Source: Callorhinchus milii
Taxonomy: Eukaryota
Length of the DNA: 64,000 bases
Direction: 5' to 3'
NCBI RefSeq assembly: GCF_018977255.1
Contig: NW_024704753.1
Location: 868,001-932,000, forward strand
Shown: in pieces, positions 16,601 through 61,794 of the stretch
Layout: every line of letters starts with the position of its first letter
Numbering within the stretch: position 1 is the stretch's first letter
Translations under genes and position numbers: made by a program
Notes under the pieces: generated by a model
The model's database searches: none
Seen by the model: the letters and a program-made list of their open reading frames with translations, nothing else
Told to the model about the DNA's origin: nothing

Positions 16601-19600
16601 GGTAATGGCAGCCAGCCCAGGGGTGTCTTCTCCCCACCACATCTCTTGTGCAGTCACGCACAAGTACCATTGAGCGCAAACCGGTACAGTCACGTACACA
16701 ACTGCAGTCACGTCTGTCGCACAGATGCGTGCTCTGGTTTGTAGACCCTTGGCGAGGAGATCTTCCCCCCGACGAGCGATTGTCTCTCCCGCTCCCGACA
16801 CTGGGAGACGCTCCCCCTCTCGCGCCTCTTTGCTTGAGTGACCGACTGTAGCTCAACCTCGTGTGAGCATCGGTGGGGGATTTGATGATGGAGGAATCAC
16901 AGTGGAGGGAATGAGAAGTATATGTATCTGGGGAGGGATTTGTCAACCTGGACACCAGAGAGAGAGAAACTCCTCTCTGTTTCAGTGGTATTTTCACAGG
17001 ACAGTCACAGATACGACCAGATCTGATGTCTCTGGCAATTAAGTGCTCTTACTCTGCTCTCCACCCTCCACCCCACCCACCCCTCCCATCAGCACTGCAC
17101 TGGTGTATTAGCATGAGTTTCAACTTGGGGTTCAAACCCACAACTTTGTGAACCCCAGGGACTTGTGCCCATAATGCATCGAGCCTGTCTCTGGTATGAT
17201 GTGATGTGGCTAATCTGTTGCATTCTGTGCCAAACAGTTGTGTCTCCGTGCCTTTGAACAAGATATGGAGAAGGCGTTTGCTGTGCAAAAGAGTGAAGAT
17301 AAAGTTTGCAACATCTGTATGGAGGTAGTTTATGAGAAGCCCATCCTGTCAGAGAGGAGGTTTGGGATCCTGTCTGACTGTATCCACCCGTACTGCCTGT
17401 CCTGTATCAGACAGTGGAGGTGCGCCAAGCAGTTTGAGAATAAAATCATCAAGTGAGTCACATCTCTCTGTGGTTTGGCCACGCTGTAATAATAACAATG
17501 ATCTCTTGTGTGTTTGATCCACACCGATAATGCCAAAGCATCTCCGAGAGCCTCGGGAGCAATGGATTAGCCGTCAAGTGTAGTGACTGTTTTTGAAGCC
17601 GTAACCAGCACAAACATGATGGAGGAATGACCTCTTCCTGTGCTCTGCGATTATAACGTGTTTTGAACAATTGTGATCTCTCAGTCTAAACCCTTGTCGT
17701 CCTAGTGTTTGTTTAGAGCAATTGCCGAGAGCACAAGCAAGCGAGAGGACTCGGGTTCGATTCCCGGGCAGGGAAAAACCTTAGGCAAGTTTCCTTACTC
17801 CACACACGTTCCTCCGTTTACCCAGTAGTAAGTAGGAACCTAGTTGATAGTCGATTGGCGATCGGTTTCTGGGGTAATAATCCCTTTAAAAAATACAATC
17901 ATTTTATCACTCAATCCACAGCTGTTTATGGGGCGCTGCTGTGTGTAATTGGCTGCCACGTTTCTCCCACAAAATTCACAGTCACTACACTTTACAGTAT
18001 ATTCTGTGAAACGTTTTGAGACGTCTCAATGATGCAGACGTCTCAAAGGTGCTACATCAAATGCAAGGATTATTATTATTAATAATAACCTCTGTGTGTG
18101 TCAGGTCCTGCCCTGAGTGCCGGGTGGTGTCTGAGTTTGTGATCCCCAGTGCGTACTGGGTGGAGGAGCAAGAGGAGAAGGAGAGACTTATCGAAGCCTT
18201 CAAGCAGGGAATGAGGTGAGTACAGTGGGTTTGGTGGCATTGGGAAAGCCACTAACACATACTGCCAGCCTGGCAATTGTACACACAGTTACAGCACCGG
18301 TCAACCAACATCAACAACAGATCACATTTGTATAGCGCCTTTCACGTCATGAGGATGTCCCAAGGCGCTGGACAGTGAGGGGTTTGCACCAGAGTTGGGG
18401 GTTGGGATCAGACAGGTGTGGAGGTCGTTGGAGTTGGAGGGAACATGACCGAAGGTGCGGTCGAAGAAGAGGGTCTTGAAAACGTTAAGAGCCTCCCCAA
18501 GTCAGGGTTGCAAATGGCTTGAGCTTTTCCTGGTTATAGTGTGTGTGCGAACCAACAACAACGACGACTTGTATTCATGTCTCACCTTTCAGTGGTTCTG
18601 CTGTTATCTATGTTATATACAACAGTAAATAGACCTCAGTTTATTAACAGCTGAATCTAAATTCTTCTCTCATTACGTTGCAAGTTTGGACAAAGCGTTC
18701 ATTGGGGCTCAGAGAGCAGGTCCCATGTCCTGCTGTTTGCTGCAGCTATAAATACTGGCTCCGGTTCATTTATAGCCCTGCTCTGGGATGGTGGTCAGCA
18801 GACCACAGCCAGCAATCATCCACTTAGCTCAGTCTCTCTGCTGGGCCAGGAATAGAGCCCAGGCAGGGGGTGCGTTCCCGACCACCACCGGAGCAACAGA
18901 CAGTTTGATCCCCTCTGTGAGAGCCATGTTCCCTCCATGCACCCAGAGTGATCAGCCTGTTAAACATCAGGGTGCGGAGGGGTGGGGGTCACTTGCAGAA
19001 TTATTTCTGGGTGTTTCACTGGCTTCCATCCCCCAGAGGATAAGAGTTCAAAATCCTCGTCCTCGCTTTCAAAGCCCTCCGCGGCCTGGCTCCTCCTTAC
19101 CTCTGTGACCTGCTCACCCCATAGCAGCTATTCTCCTTTTTTTCTAACGATTTTCCCTCTTGTTCCCTGTACAGCAAAAAATCCTGTAAGTATTTCAACC
19201 AGGGCAAGGGGAGCTGCCCATTCGGTGGCAAGTGCCTGTACCTCCACGCTTACCCAGACGGCACCTTGGCACAGCCGGAACTGCCACGAAAACAGCTCAG
19301 CTCTGAGGGCAACGTCAGGGTAAATCATCTTCAGCCTCGTTACTGCGCGGTTACTCACCTCCAAGTTAGAAGGTTGTGGGTTCAAGTCCCCACTTTGGGA
19401 CTTGGAATCATAGTCCAAGCTGATGCCCCAATACAGCGCTGGGGGGAGGAGGTGTTGCACTATTAGAGGTGCCGTCCTTCAGATGAGACGTTAAACCGAA
19501 GTCCCCGTCTGCTGTTAAAGATCCTGCGGCGCTATTCGAAAAGAGAAGAGAGTTTCTCTCTCCCGCTGTTCTGGCCAACAACCCCCCGAATAAAATTGGT

Positions 19601-22976: not shown

Positions 22977-30589
<7,613 letters not shown>

Positions 30590-51473: not shown

Positions 51474-53267
<1,794 letters not shown>

Positions 53268-53700: not shown

Positions 53701-56700
53701 TATCGGGCCTTTGTAAACAGCTGAGTGTGAGTACATGGTAAACGAGATACAAAGAGCAAACCTGTCTACAGCTGAAAAGAGCAGGTGTTTTAACAAAAAG
53801 CATACGAGTAAGCAGCTTCCAGTAGCTGAAACCCGATAGTGTTGGAGATACAGATGTTCAAGCAGAGGTTTGAGTAATTTTTTGAATGTAGTTTAGGAAC
53901 TTACTATACCCATTATGAAATAGCGTAACAGAAACACATAGCAGACAGGATTGGAACTACACAACAGCAGTTGAATGTGTTTTCACAGAAATCAAGATGT
54001 TATTTTTGTATAATATTACAATTAGACTACTGTAAAGAATCATTTGCTTGAAATCAGTTTTTTTGACAGAAGGTGAAAGCAACTGAAGACCTAGAACTAT
54101 AGAAATGTAATTTTAAACTATCAATAAAGCTGGAGGAGGAAGGGGAAAGCTGCTCTGTGTGGTCTGATTTCACATTGCTTGGATAGTAATGCACCATAAC
54201 ATCTGGCTGACCAGAGAGATCATTTACAAAGGCCGGGAATCTTGACACAGCTCACTGGTTGCACTACTGAAGAGCCGACCAGACGCGGGGATGCTTTTAT
54301 ATTGGAAAATAGAACCAGAGCATTAGACCCCATGACTGCACATCTCGGTAGTAAATCTATCTCACAAACTTAACTCCTCACCTTTGATTTAGGCAAACAT
54401 GTCATTAGTAGATATTGATGAGATGGCTTCAGAAATTCAGGTAGTTTTTAAGTAAAATAATGAAAATGCATTGTTTTTTTTTCTCCCATTGGGTATTTGT
54501 TTAGAAATGTTCACTCCTGCTACAACTTGCACTTATATAGCGCCCTCCATGCAAGGTAGCCTTTCAGTGCTTTGAACAGTGACGGAGCTGGGGGAGGGGA
54601 AGTGGCCGTAAGCATAGTCTAAGAAGAAGGTTTTCACTCTTATTAGCACGTCACTGTTAATAGGGTTATATAATTGATACAGTATGAACAGTCAGTGGGA
54701 TCTCCGCTCACTGTAAGTGACCGCAGTGAGTAAAGGAAATAAGATGTTGGGTTCCATTGCTACATCTGTTATCTTTAGATCCTTAATTTACAGTGCTCTA
54801 GTTCACACTACGTGTATAGCCATCTGACATAAGCCCATAAGGGTGTAGGTCTTAGAGCAATGAGGCTGATCGGAGGGATGAACTGAGCAACAAACATACA
54901 TTTTGGAAAGCAATGGATAGAAGACAAAATAATTTTCATTTAAGAAATAATGTGTTGTGCGAGCAGGGAATTGCTGTTCGCTTGAGCTGTGTTCCCGGTG
55001 CAAAGCGAGCTGTTTACCAGCAGTCAGTAGGAACCTGCTTGTTAGTCAATTGGCAGATCACATTCCAGGGCTAATAATCCTTCAAAAAAAATTGGTCCCT
55101 TCAATCCATGAGTGGGGACGCCACTGGGCGCAGTTGGTTGCAGTGTTTTGCCTACAAAACACACAGTAGCTACACTTTACAGTGTCCTGTGAAACCCTTT
55201 GAGACGTCTCAAAGATGTGATTGTGCATTACTATAACAATATAATCAGACTTAACACATTGTACAGTGGCAGGGCAAAAACCTTTTACAATATGGGTCAC
55301 TTCAATCTACAACTGTTTGTGTGGACGTCGCAGTGTGCAATTGGCTGCTGCATTTTGCCCACAAATATACAGTCAATTCACTGTACAGTGTATTCTGTGA
55401 AGTGCTTTCAGATGTCTAGAAGATGTGAAAAGTGCTATATCAAATGCAAAGATTATTATATAATGAGTTACTGTGGATGTGCAGTAGATCACCGATTGTC
55501 CACCGTTCGACCAGTCTACTTGTCAATATGGAGGGGTTTAGAATGCAGTAAATAGAAACTTTTTATTGGTTGGTAACAATACAGTATAAATTTAGGATTA
55601 TTACCCAGCAATGGTGGAATTAACACATTAGTGGGACATGGACATACCCTGGTTTCTTGTCCAATTTTAGAAATACATGGTTCTATACAGTTCCAATAGG
55701 TTGTAAGCATCCAATCAGCACTGGCACACAACCAGGTGAAATTTAACCATGTGCAACTGGAAAATTAGCCCAGAGTTGGCACCATGAGAGAGGAACTTGG
55801 AGACACAGGTTGAGGACACCCGCAAATGGCAATAGAATGAAGGCAAGTGCTTAACAGTGAAGCGTTACCTGCTTCAAACCCTTCCATTTCCATGCATACC
55901 ACCTACACATGAAAATCCCAGAGGTAGATTGTTGGAATGACATGTGCTCTCTCTCACACTCTCCCCTGGAGGGTCACATCCTGTTTACCTAATTCCAGTG
56001 AGCGTTAGGCACAGGCTGGCCAGAGCCAAGGTTACCATCAGGAATGTGATCCCTCTTTCCAGGAGCAACACCTTGCAATCTTCATGCGAGTGTCACTGTG
56101 CCACGCCAATGAAGGGAGGGACGAGCCAGTTGTGAAAGGCTCTTATATTTGATGTGTTGGTACATGAAAGGAATAGAGTGAAATGTAAAGGCAGGACTGG
56201 GCTGTAAGGCCAGCACTGATCCCGTCACTTCCAGCTCGGGTTTCAGCGGTAAAAAACATCGCTTAACAATAATAATCCTCGCATTTGATACAGCACCTCA
56301 CCGCGTCTTCCAAGACGTCTCAAAGCGCTTCCCAGGATACACTGTAAAGTGCGTTGACTATATTTTGTGGGCGAAACCCGGCAGCCAATTGCGCACAGCA
56401 GCGTCCCCACAAGCAGTCGTGGATTAAGCGACCAAATTATTATTTTTATTTGAAGGGATTATTACTCACTTGTTTTAGCCCCCGTCAGCGCTCCGATACT
56501 AAGCAGAGCTCTATCACTGAAAAAATAGTTGTGTGACCGTACGACTGAGTGGGTAATGAGGTCAGTCTGTCACTGGAGTACTCGCATTCATACTCGACAC
56601 ATGATACAGTACCCTCACCGGCAGTCATTGCCTCCCTGTGCAGGAGGAATGCCACAGCAAAGCACATAGAACCAGCAGTCAGGTACATGGCAGAGACCTG

Positions 56701-57196
56701 TGATGTGAACAAGTCTGGATATAAACAACGATGGAACAAAATGGTAGGAGATCCAACCCAACCCGCCCTGTGCTTCCCACTCCTTACAAACCCACGACCT
56801 CCCTTCGCTTCACACACTGATTAAATTATTCGATGGCCCTCTTATTTCTTTTTTAATATATATGAAAATAAGGTGTTTTTTTTTCGCGCAGGTAAGTCGG
56901 GGCTATTCAGTTTGAGGACTCTCTATTGGGGCAACGCAGCACTGTTAACTCTTTATGTCACCTGTGAATTTAGCTGAATTATCTGAAACCAAAGTCGGTG
57001 CAGTTTAAAGAGACTAAAATCTCATCGCTGCGCAAAACACCGCTGCGGGTGACCTGTAGAAGCTTTCTTGCCGGGTTAGTTACCTGGAGTTGGGAGGACC
57101 GCGCGATGTGCGGTGTTTAAACTCCCGGAATATATTTAAAGCTGTCGATCTGCCCCCAGTTGTGTGTGTGTGTGTGTGTGTGAGAGAGAGTGAGAT

Positions 57197-60100
57197 ATGC
57201 TGAGTTCCAGCACAAACAGCCACAGCTATTGCGAGCTGAAGCTGACTAATCGTTCGGTAGTTTTCTCAGCAGCTTGCGGCAAGGTGAGGCTGCTGGGGAG
57301 GGCGGCCCCGCCGGGGGGGAGGCAGGTGTGTGCCCCGGGGGAGAGGCGGGGGGGAGCCGGGGAGGTGGACCGCAACAGCCACTCTCTCAACTTGCCGACG
57401 CCATCGGACGCGGTGGGAATCTCTGCGGAAACTCCTGTGAAGCGGCAGCCGGACAGAGGGACTGACCGTGAGGTACTGTCTCCACAACTGGACGCCACGT
57501 CAAGTCACCAAACGGTTGGGGATGTCTCTGACGGCTCTGTGGACACAGCAGTGGATGATGACAGTGGACAAGAAACAGAGGAGGAGAGCACATGGCTGAA
57601 GTGGGGCAGTCTGGCTCTGACGCTTGAGGCAGCTCCTGAGTGTGAGGTGAGCACTGAGGGGTGTCCTGGCCAGACTGGAGGGGAGCCAGGCGGGTGGTCA
57701 GACACAGGAGATACCTTGGGACCAGTTGACCCACAAGAGGAGATTATAAGAGCTCCTGAGAGCGACCAGGCCGCGGTAAATGTGGATGTTACACTTGATG
57801 ACAAGCAGATCACACGGCCCGAAGCTGCTGATGAGGATGGACTGAGATGGACAGAGGCATCTGATCAGGTTCAAGCCGATAGCTTCACAGAAGCTCACAA
57901 AGAGCTCACACCTGATGCATCGATTACCGCTGAGGCTAATGGAGAAATCGATTCATTTCAATCACCTCAAGGGGTCGGAGATGGGGTGGGATTCTCCCCC
58001 CAGCCCAAGGCACTTGGCCAGGGTGTTGCCCCGAACATAGAGCAGGGACAGGGGGAGAGGAGGGACATCTCAGGCTCCTCTGCCCCGACTTTGGAGGATC
58101 TGACTGAGGAGATCGCGGGGATCAGACAGAATGAAGCCTGGAGCCAGACTGAGATCAGACTGCTGGTGAGGAAGCTGGAGGAGTCCAGCTGTCAGGTTGA
58201 TAGTCTCCAGCGGGAGTTGGCCACAGAGAGGGAGAGGACCGGGCTGTATGTGGAGAGGATGGGAGTCCTGGAGAGGGAGGTGGGCGGCAGCTCGGCTCTG
58301 GCGGAGGTGCTGTCTGAGTGCAGGTGCAAAGTGGAACAGTTTGAGGAACTGAAAGAATCGTCAGAAGAGCTGGTGTACAAAGTAAGTAAAGTATATCTTT
58401 ATACTTTGCTCCATCTCATTGACTTTTCTGGTTACTGGGGTGGGTGGGGTGGGAGCACTTCTCCAATGACTTACTATGAGCGTATTTAAGTGACTACAGT
58501 AAACCTCACATAAGTCGTATCAGCTGGAATCATACATTTAACAAAGTCTTATGACAAAGTTGCTTAAGTCGTAACATGACGAATACACAACAACAAATTA
58601 CATTTGTACAGCGCCTTTCACGAGTCGTGTATTATAAAAGCTACCGATGTACACTTTCAATTCTAGTTGGTGTCGTCGTTTGCTTTTAATAATAATTTGC
58701 TGTGTTTCCTCAAAGGTCCTCGACAATAAAGCCATAGATTACATTTCAGGAATCTTTCACGATTATCTGCGTTATAGGGTCACTGATCAATCACACAGTA
58801 AAGGGTATTCAACCACATGAACCTTATCACAAAGGGTGGCTGGTATCTGGCAGGACTGGATGCCAGTGTGCCAACAGACGCAACGACCCTGCCAGCCTCC
58901 TCAGCCCAGCTCTCAGTTTGTGGCAACGTGGCTGCAAACAATGTCCTCATTTCTGGATTGAAAGAAATTCAAATGACGTTATTATTATTATTATTATTTG
59001 AAAATAGAAGAATTATTATTATGATTATTACTTGGAAATAGAAGTTTGTAATTAAGTGGTCTAGAGATATGAAATACAAAATTCAACACTTTCATATTGT
59101 TATGCTGTTCCATTGATTCTTTTTTTAAAAAAAAACCTCCATCACTTTTCTTCTTGCCAAATGTCTGTCCTTGTCTGCTGAAGGTGCTGAGGCAGTTTTT
59201 CAGGAGCCAGCAATCTGTGGTTAGATGTTGGGAGTACTGCCAGCAAACTATTCCACCGTGGAGATCATAGATGTGACTGATCGTGTCCTCAACTGATATT
59301 CATACACATTCACTCTCCAGCAGAGTCCAGTGGGCAGCCACCCTGAGTGTATGTTTCCCCACACTTGCCCATCCCAGGGCACTGACATCAATGTAGAACT
59401 GCTCTGATGGGAGATCTGCTAACTCAGCACAGACGTTGTGGTCTCTCTGCCTTTATGGTCATATCGTTTATAAAAAAACCTCTAAATATCATGTGTTGAA
59501 GTTGAGCTCAGCTGCGGTCACATTGTTTGCATGTTTGTTGGGTTGGGTCCCAAGGCACCACTGACGTTCAGTCCTGCCAAGCACCTCTGTGATAAGAGAC
59601 TTGTATTTGATGGAACACAAGTATACAGTCAATTTACTTTACAGTATATTCTGTGAAGCGCTTTGAGACGCCTAGAACACGTGAAAGCGCTATATCAAAT
59701 GCAAGGATTATTATTATTATAACTGATAACTTGGAGGAGGTGAAAACATGATTGTAACATTCACCAACCGAGACACTCAAGTCCAGAGAGCAAAACTGGC
59801 TGCTCGTTACACAGAAACCATTCAAGGAAAAGTCTGAACAAGACAAGGGAGTCAGCTCATGTGGATTTTCTCTGCTCTAGTTCCAGGAGTCCAAGGAGAC
59901 TGCAGTTCACTTAAGGGAGAGAATTACAGAACTGGAATCTCAGAATGTTATCAAGGAACGCAGAATAAAGGAGCTACGACATCAGTTGTCTGAATGCAGG
60001 AAAACCGTGGAGATTGCCCCGGTGCCAAGGCAGGCCAGCACCTTGAATGGAAGTGGGCTAGAAATGGTGGAGGAAGAGACACCGAAGCAGCGATGTTCCA

Positions 60101-60213
60101 GCAGAAGAAACGGACATGCAGTTTCAGCCTCCACCCAGCCCCAGAGAAGGCAATCTGCTGCTCACTCAGCACAGCCACCCACAGACACTACAAAAGTCTG
60201 TATCATTCTATGA
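57197..60213 (+). CDS. Uncharacterised ~505-aa acidic/disordered plus coiled-coil protein with C-terminal CaaX (CIIL); 2 exons, start uncertain
   Basis: Non-repetitive open frame 57197-58381 ends at a phase-0 AAA|GTAAGT donor. Acceptor TTTTCTCTGCTCTAG precedes 59881; exon 59881-60213 continues the heptad pattern (FQESKETAVHLRERITELESQNVIKERRIKELRHQLSEC) and ends TKVCIIL*. TATA-like TATATTTAAA at 57131-57140. Confidence 0.75.
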
Positions 60214-60254
60214 CTGGAAGAAACGGGGTCAACGTTTTGTGAACTAACACGTTG

Positions 60255-60545
60255 TGGAGTCCTGTAGCGTAATGGTTAGAGCACTCCCCTCACAAGCGAG
60301 AGGATAAGGGTTCGATTCCCGGCAGGGCGAAGCGTTGGCCAAGTTTCCTTACTCTACACACCACAAAAATGCGATCACTTTAATCCACAACTGTTTGTAG
60401 GAAATGAAGTGCGCAATTGGCTGACTCATTTCACCCACAAAAATATACAGTCAATTCACTTTACAGTATATTCTGCGAAGCCCTCTGAAACATCTCGAAG
60501 ACATGATAAGGTGCTTTATTAAATGGAGGGATTATTATTATTATT
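60255..60545 (+). mobile_element. tRNA-derived SINE
   Basis: GTGGAGTCCTGTAGCGTAATGGTTAGAGC..GGGTTCGATTCCCGG head, internal deletion, family tail. Confidence 0.8.
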
Positions 60546-61794
60546 TAACAACACACAAAAGAATTTGAAATTACATTCACTATTTCATTATTGATTTTCA
60601 AAGTGAATGAGATAAAATTCTCCGGCTGGACTGACCCTTTGAACTGAAAACTGACTGGAGGCCAGTTTAAGCCACAATATTCAAGATCACTTGTAACAAG
60701 ATCACTTATGGAGTCACAAGAGTCACTTTGCCTTATTTGCGACAAAGAATTGTGTTTTAACCCCAAATACTGGGGATAGCATAGAAACTTTATTTCTTAT
60801 TATGTCGTCTTTTAATCAAACATCAGACTCACATCAAATGGTAGCAAATAAAGTCTATTAATGGAATATTTTTCAGTTGAGAGAATTGTTCGTCCCTTGG
60901 CTAAACTCACAGTTCTCTCAATCAACCGAGAGAGAAGTTATGTGGTTCGGTTCAATTGTAATGTTTACCTGCAAGGCAAAGTCCTAACGGAGAGGGTGGT
61001 TCTTGCCAGACAGCGATATCAATGGCAAGATATGTGGTGTTAGCAGGATAGACTCCAGCAGTTACTCCAACGTACATTCTGGGGTCACCAAGCCTTGGCT
61101 TTTGCCAGTCTGCGCCTTATACTCTCTGGATTTGGGTGAGCAGGGAGCGTTCCTCCAGGGAGAGAGTGTGCATTCCATTCCAATACATAGGAATTTCCAT
61201 GTATAAGGGGAATGCATGGAATTCTGTTTGGTTTGGAGAATCTTAAGCATGGTGATGGTTTTTCCACGTACGTCAGACACCTGGCCGGCCAAAATAATAA
61301 ATTACTTCAGCAGCACTTCTGAAACACAAGCTTCCTTCTTTTCTCTCATTACGCATTTTACCCCTTCTGTACTTTATACAATGACAATTTAATATGGAGC
61401 ACATTTACATATTGGATTCCTTTCAAGCCAGTATTTAACTTGAACTCACTCCCGTCTAAAGGCCGATGTAGTGGAGTAGATGTTTATGCCAGCCTTTCGG
61501 GAGTGTAATGTTTCCCCCTTGACAGCAGAGCTATTAGTGGTTTATACTTTGCAGATGCTCAGGCAGTAATGTGATAGCCGATCCCATCTAAACCTGTCTT
61601 TCTAAAGTTGTCAGTTGGTATCCTAATATCAGGACTTACAGACAGAGAATTACAGACAGAGAATTAAAAGTTGGTAGAAAATAATTAACAAGCCTTTTGC
61701 TCTCTGTAGTTTAACCTAAAATTTACTTTACAGTAAAGGTACAGACTCTGCAGTTGCTTTAAAAAGAAAGATTTAATGCAGTTTCAAATTGTAT

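Follow-up and report, generated by a model that had tools for sequence, protein, structure and literature searches.

Background

Several described groups of proteins join a coiled coil to a C-terminal CaaX box. Spindly, CENP-F and the lamins do so; they are farnesylated and have much longer rods than the one described here, and the lamins carry an Ig-like domain in their tail. In the paralemmins (PALM1-3) the coil is N-terminal. Axin-type scaffolds dock both tankyrase and PP2A-B56 within a disordered region, the latter through the B56 motif of Axin. The published architecture of the paralemmins combines an acidic, mostly disordered chain and conserved cassettes with the coiled coil and CaaX box (PMC2148134). 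As formulated in PMC10970375, a PP2A-B56 docking motif reads [LMFI]xx[ILV]xE, lies in a disordered region and has acidic residues at positions 2 and 7-9, and the tankyrase motif is given as R-x-x-[GPAC]-[DE]-G (PMC6082341). For CaaX boxes with X = Phe, Ile or Leu the attached lipid is described as geranylgeranyl (PMC9857354). Prenylated tails with Ser at position -3 and Ile or Met at -1 from the Cys are reported to bind PDE6D with nanomolar affinity, to be released by ARL3 only and to be sorted to cilia (PMC5512577); the rule is restated in PMC8842248. INPP5E and GRK1 have a prenyl-Cys preceded by Ser(-3) and a hydrophobic residue at -1, and NIM1K and UBL3 have Ser(-3). The interactor data of PMC9857354 give Ser(-3) for 12 of 25 prenylated PDE6D interactors; as reported there, Ser-to-Lys mutants of NIM1K and UBL3 still reach cilia and FAM219A, a Ser(-3) bearer, was undetected in cilia, so that the motif predicts binding better than location.

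The gene LOC103185057 of Callorhinchus milii and its relatives, described here, resemble each of these systems in part. Their coil is C-terminal and no palmitoylation Cys lies beside the CaaX box, unlike in the paralemmins; with respect to Spindly, CENP-F and the lamins they differ by a rod of ~140 aa, by the lack of beta strands and by X = Leu. Ser(-3), as in the PDE6D cargoes, is present in 20 of the 21 full-length family members, but the Callorhinchus milii protein has Thr(-3). The family moreover has a predicted coiled-coil rod, in contrast to the enzymes INPP5E, GRK1 and NIM1K and the ubiquitin-like UBL3. In contrast to the Axin-type scaffolds the family has a predicted lipid tail instead of an RGS or DIX domain; its bony-fish orthologues carry candidate motifs of both docking types, the Callorhinchus milii protein neither. 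Only the gene model was known before. The family seems to be undescribed, as do the tail signature and the motifs, in that a literature search confined to the articles proper found neither LOC103185057 or six orthologue locus numbers nor a description of the family.

Results

Gene structure and transcripts

The window, i.e. the whole analysed stretch of 64,000 nucleotides of the Callorhinchus milii genome, and the DNA downstream of it hold the following features:

51474..53267, + strand: upstream neighbour with zinc knuckles, presumably CNBP (context only)
57197..58381, + strand: first coding exon (codons 1-395), with the acidic disordered region and the beginning of the coil
57197..58090, + strand: residues 1-298, predicted disordered, acidic, sequence not conserved (AlphaFold, alignment)
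58091..58381, + strand: residues 299-395, predicted coiled coil with a helix break at 363-366 (AlphaFold, alignment)
58382..59880, + strand: intron of 1499 nt, GT..AG, phase 0 (joints of RNA-like contigs)
59881..60213, + strand: coding exon 2 (codons 396-505 and stop), remainder of the coil to ~60015, poorly conserved linker and tail
60190..60213, + strand: C-terminal tail (T-K-V-C-I-I-L-stop) with the CaaX box, X being Leu and the Cys codon lying at 60199-60201
60214..60463, + strand: 3' UTR, minimum extent (X1 and X3 contigs)
L002:6254-L003:2437, L004:2462-2758, L005:4865-5242 and L007:5678-6877: downstream block with ISY1, an HDHD5-like frame, EFCC1/CCDC48 and a DUF4550 gene

Exon 1 measures 1185 nt (395 codons) and is directly followed by a GTAAGT donor, a pyrimidine-rich stretch ending in AG directly precedes position 59881, and the phase-0 join of the two exons yields a product of 505 aa with the C-terminal end DTTKVCIIL*. 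This structure, which the initial annotation had proposed, is borne out by contigs that bridge the 58381^59881 junction and extend 76 nt or more to either side of it in four of the seven RNA-like runs (X3, X5, X6 and X7, all from one study), the kinds of run being guesses and no run being on record as RNA. The joint is absent from the DNA-like run X8, which reads through the donor and covers the intron. From a second study, one contig begins exactly at 59881 with 32 unplaced letters (X1) and another stops exactly at 58381 with 43 unplaced letters (X2); no junction contig was seen in X4. Contigs of X1, X3 and X4 read through the CaaX box and its stop codon and on into the 3' UTR, AATAAA candidates lie at 60847 and 61296, and RNA-like contigs cover parts of exon 1 from 57388 onward. 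LOC103185057 is a real spliced two-exon gene. RefSeq lists the same 505-aa two-exon product as an uncharacterized protein (XP_042195612.1 / XP_007901581.1, the older record differing at residues 19-20), but as a prediction only and without name or function. Because that model already joins both exons, the connection to the CaaX box is not hidden from annotation, contrary to what had been supposed.

No listed contig covers 57197-57324, which includes the start codon, and as this holds for the DNA-like run too the stretch is uninformative about the start; the ATG at 57197 is the sole in-frame ATG before codon 355. The N-terminal region (57197-57650) is ~160-180 aa longer than that of three sharks (505 vs 328-349 aa), and its first 100 residues are basic (pI 9.1), unlike the remainder. 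It could represent an extension specific to the lineage or, in part, 5' UTR. Upstream, a T-rich stretch at 56862-56897 ends in CAG and is followed by GTAAGT, which would allow for a non-coding or short exon; no listed contig joint uses it. Low-depth contigs (RNA-like X1, X2 and X4) over the flanking intergenic DNA (55500-57094 and 60730-61587) may represent CNBP read-through, a longer 3' UTR or library DNA.

Genomic neighbourhood

The gene sits between CNBP and ISY1. The upstream neighbour, which we take to be CNBP from its sequence, ends ~4 kb upstream, and ISY1 follows on the same strand ~10 kb past the stop, outside the window. Beyond ISY1 lie CCDC48/EFCC1 and then the DUF4550 gene, presumably CFAP92/KIAA1257. 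Pfam matches were obtained for ISY1 (Isy1) and EFCC1/CCDC48 (CCD48); the frame that we take to be HDHD5-like had none. Further upstream in the window, an exon at 19125-19463 (+) reads as MKRN2 with a CCCH zinc finger, and exons with kinase motifs at 25166-26808 (-) presumably belong to RAF1. Each exon of LOC103185057 has one match only in its own genome (the counts are lower bounds), and no tandem paralogue lies in the window or in the 60 kb downstream.

The downstream gene set matches that of the chicken region. For chicken, a 227-kb region with six genes has been listed, namely RAF1, CNBP, ISY1, CECR5/HDHD5, RAB43 and EFCC1 (PMC6562611); no gene like LOC103185057 occurs in that list, which stems from an older annotation, so that its absence there only hints at loss. 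A gar record (P0019) is a fusion of the family gene with ISY1, which implies the same gene order in gar.

Distribution of the family

A phmmer search of 1.84 billion representatives recovered 14 proteins (one of them the query) at E <= 0.001, each through the C-terminal coil, and two profile searches, each of which scored only ~8000 candidates, added further members. The named members belong to Mustelus, Scyliorhinus, Cetorhinus, Chiloscyllium, Lepisosteus, Atractosteus, Polyodon, Megalops, Albula, Anguilla, Synaphobranchus, Arapaima, Scleropages, Denticeps, Alosa, Engraulis, Coilia, Tachysurus, Latimeria, Geotrypetes and Rhinatrema. Among the fishes the family takes in sharks, gar, paddlefish, eels, herrings, bonytongues, catfish and the coelacanth; among the amphibians it takes in caecilians. 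Their records read 'uncharacterized' or 'hypothetical' or bear automatic labels (myosin-, paramyosin-, Nuf2-, CCDC150- or CCDC186-like, ISY1). Amniotes, frogs, salamanders, cypriniforms, euteleosts, cyclostomes and invertebrates were not represented among the named matches of these searches, which, given their limited scope, is weak evidence of absence.

For the tree, one full-length model was kept for each species, which left 21 members, and their last 215 residues were used. The count leaves out duplicates or isoforms that keep the tail (P0003, P0010, P0011), five database models without the terminal CaaX box (P0006, P0007, P0014, P0019, P0022) and fragments (P0015, P0026, P0028, P0029). The cartilaginous fishes were grouped with a support of 100/99, the sarcopterygians fell on one side of a branch, the teleosts were grouped, and the caecilians, eels, bonytongues and clupeids were each grouped as expected, with some forks open. 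The tree broadly follows the species tree and is consistent with a single orthologous family. Four partial models (P0006, P0014, P0015, P0026), two of them from sharks and two from other contigs, break at the residue of the window's intron, and the intron position therefore appears to be conserved.

Judged by their sequences, these proteins form an unnamed family of jawed vertebrates, common to the cartilaginous, ray-finned and lobe-finned groups; with this span the gene is no orphan, and a restriction to a narrow lineage is not supported. With the split between human and elephant shark at ~470 million years ago (bioRxiv 767913), this is a vertebrate family ~470 million years old, without a name or a Pfam model and with misleading automatic labels, within the well-conserved RAF1-CNBP-ISY1 block. 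Should its absence from both amniotes and euteleosts prove true, work on the standard model organisms would never have brought it to light.

Comparison with named families

The proposal that the protein could not be assigned to a known family is supported: Pfam gave no match at cut-off for either exon, nor at E <= 0.01 for the whole protein, Foldseek gave 0 matches to the PDB, a PDB sequence profile recovered generic coils only (best E 0.01), and the neighbours in the ESM Atlas were generic coiled coils. None of three candidate identities was supported. The Paralemmin Pfam domain was absent in the 14 full proteins and in the 25 of 44 families listed for 12 C-terminal parts. A lamin or other intermediate filament is at odds with a predicted structure of helices 299-363 and 366-440 only, without strands; Pfam Filament gave a below-cut-off match in one member. 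Kazrin, CAGE1, CCDC27 and TSKS shared 126-148 of 256 Atlas features with the family, against 170 as is typical of family members; the Pfam copy used may lack such newest models as Kazrin and Ccdc27.

The coiled coil

AlphaFold predicts two long helices (299-363 and 366-440, pLDDT mostly >90), no beta strands and a disordered linker after residue 440. Among 19 relatives the mean identity to the Callorhinchus milii protein is 0.20 for residues 299-363, 0.41 for 364-440, 0.14 for the linker (441-498) and 0.53 for the tail (499-505). The coil had been read as continuing across the splice junction, and the heptad repeat is indeed unbroken there, with hydrophobic residues in 0.80 of the a and 0.72 of the d positions over 20 family rows, compared to 0.17-0.39 at the other positions. 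Both the coil and the CaaX box are kept throughout the family. After the helix break the members share the signature L-x3-L-x2-C-x2-K-V-E-Q-[LF]-E-x2-K-x2-S, and six residues are the same in 20 of 20 rows, namely Cys375, Glu383, Ser389, Leu413, Glu414 and Cys502. Of these, Cys375 and Ser389 occupy heptad a positions. The exposed residues K378-x-E380-Q381-x-E383-x-x-K386 are also nearly fixed, which suggests a partner-binding surface.

A two-copy model of residues 295-445 scored 0.39, against 0.01 for the best of 3 controls, although such a score for a coiled-coil dimer may mirror a generic likeness to solved coils. Its runs agree in at least 31% of contacts at a pLDDT of at least 64, and its best contacts (417-417, 410-410, 431-431) are parallel and in register. 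In calibration, 21 of 30 microbial homo-pairs came up to the score mark but 0 of 23 single chains did; for eukaryotes the counts were 17 of 29 homo-pairs and 0 of 30 single chains (animals 7/16; pairs without an older solved relative 1/7). The model supports a parallel homodimer of the predicted coil (residues 299-440).

The C-terminal tail

All 21 full-length members end in [S/T]-[K/R]-[V/I/L/A]-C-a-a-[L/F]. The Cys is present in 21, X is Leu in 19 and Phe in 2, position -1 is Val in 17, Ile in 2, Leu in 1 and Ala in 1, position -2 is Lys in 16 and Arg in 5, and position -3 is Ser in 20, the sole Thr being that of the Callorhinchus milii protein, which has Val at -1. Such an end is rare by chance: among 3247 stop-to-stop ORFs of the window and the 60 kb downstream, C-x-[VIL]-[LF] closes 10, and the full family tail occurs once, in LOC103185057 itself. 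The C-a1-a2-X pattern of GGTase-I substrates (X = Leu, Phe or Ile) recurs in every one of the full-length members, in agreement with the initial annotation, and the tail is likely a geranylgeranylation signal, with the lipid attachment predicted. There is no polybasic patch (1-6 Lys/Arg in the 25 residues preceding the Cys), and the last 12 residues hold no Cys besides that of the CaaX box.

A hydrophobic residue at -1 is found in all members, and with Ser(-3) the family tail resembles the published signature of high-affinity PDE6D cargo, the Thr(-3) of Callorhinchus milii excepted; that signature was derived with farnesylated peptides bearing Ile or Met at -1, whereas the family has mostly Val and a predicted geranylgeranyl group.

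The N-terminal region and its candidate docking motifs

The acidic, disordered nature that had been claimed for the N-terminal region is confirmed by a pI of 4.25 and an AlphaFold pLDDT mostly <50 for residues 1-298. Its sequence is poorly retained: the mean identity of 19 relatives to the Callorhinchus milii protein is 0.09, and when the region was compared by BLAST with three sharks, paddlefish, gar and coelacanth, no match fell below E 0.1.

Within the disordered region, L-[EK]-[SA]-I-x-E, an LxxIxE motif, occurs in all 14 ray-finned members and the coelacanth (15/21). In all but one of these 15 carriers (14/21) positions 8 and 9 are both acidic, as preferred in PP2A-B56 docking; the chance of such a motif in shuffled sequences is 0.001-0.008 per protein. 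A near-optimal tankyrase motif, R-[SC]-P-G-D-G, follows ~17-21 residues past LxxIxE in 11 of the 14 ray-finned members. The bony-fish members would accordingly be carriers of a candidate PP2A-B56 docking motif and, among the ray-finned fishes, mostly of a candidate tankyrase motif as well. The strict patterns, which were set after the alignment had been seen, are both absent from the four cartilaginous fishes and the two caecilians. Residues 1-297 of the Callorhinchus milii protein lack the B56 motif, and its only tankyrase-like site is a loose RAAPPG (shuffle chance 0.17). A block at residues 144-158 that by eye might have passed for a decayed B56/tankyrase block was rejected: its profile was matched or beaten by 459 of 1000 shuffles.

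Proposed mode of action and alternatives

We tentatively prefer, at not quite an even chance, the combined reading of a geranylgeranylated dimeric coiled-coil scaffold that is moved by PDE6D. By the established CaaX rules, and since X is Leu or Phe in all members, GGTase-I would very probably lipidate Cys502. The ~140-residue rod is predicted, with good probability, to dimerise in register, in which case one end of each dimer would bear two lipids, both on flexible linkers. It is somewhat favoured that the conserved Ser(-3) and the Val or Ile at -1 would give tight PDE6D binding; that release by ARL3 would then enrich the protein in cilia or photoreceptor-type membranes is doubtful. In the bony fishes only, the disordered N-terminus would likely dock PP2A-B56 and tankyrase and so make a membrane-tethered adaptor, and the Callorhinchus milii protein, without the docking motifs, would act via the conserved coil surface (residues 364-440). 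A far-reaching form of this proposal, which we think unlikely, would make the family an ancient, undescribed ciliary and possibly photoreceptor scaffold, a doubly geranylgeranylated coiled-coil dimer delivered via PDE6D/ARL3, that in bony fishes brings PP2A-B56 and tankyrase to the ciliary membrane and that was lost independently in amniotes and euteleosts.

An alternative is an ordinary prenylated scaffold of plasma membrane or endomembranes, paralemmin-like and without a link to cilia, in which the S-K-V before the Cys would serve efficient lipidation and processing or act as a phosphorylation switch. We hold such a scaffold to be quite possible, if short of probable: the architecture of acidic disordered region, coil and CaaX box is what it would have, a dimer with two geranylgeranyl groups would hold on to membranes without a carrier, and in the cases reported in PMC9857354 ciliary location does not require Ser(-3), nor does Ser(-3) ensure it. 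The conserved upstream residues, however, fall exactly at the positions described as contacting PDE6D (PMC5512577), while the adjoining linker varies, and a polybasic or nearby second-Cys membrane signal is missing.

There are two further readings. The lipid could be a handle for binding proteins, in the style of the farnesylated Spindly and CENP-F, with the coil as a motor or kinetochore/centrosome adaptor; the segment past the helix break loosely resembles what we take to be the Spindly motif, Pfam CENP-F_leu_zip has weak matches in 3 of the 12 members searched (best E 7.7e-5), and weak PDB sequence matches include the CEP57 and SAS-6 coils (E 0.02-0.3). The Pfam matches are, however, scattered over 44 unrelated coiled-coil families, the rod has only ~140 residues, and X = Leu predicts geranylgeranyl rather than farnesyl, which makes this reading very improbable. 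It is improbable, too, that the family represents a named amniote coiled-coil gene (kazrin, CAGE1, CCDC27 or TSKS) in diverged form, as orthologue or paralogue, by which it would be neither new nor lost: the ESM Atlas feature scores of 0.90-0.93 to these families for two members are in favour of this, but only one of the 10 best Atlas matches shared a family, the top match differed between two queries, there was no Pfam match, and no such protein was among the family-search matches.

Gene models and sequence differences

Three of the database models without the CaaX box (P0007, P0019 and P0022, from gar and eel) all depart from the family sequence at one point, directly behind the tail's S-K; the Val codon (GTN) there might be used as a splice donor. 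One of them runs into ISY1. This break is either a recurrent prediction artefact that hides the CaaX box or a real read-through isoform. The Callorhinchus milii contigs, unlike these models, run straight through the tail. Between 57675 and 60147 the contigs contain seven coding differences, of low depth and too few to test: the three in or at the edge of the coiled coil (codons 290, 332 and 435) are all silent, and the four in the disordered parts all change the residue.
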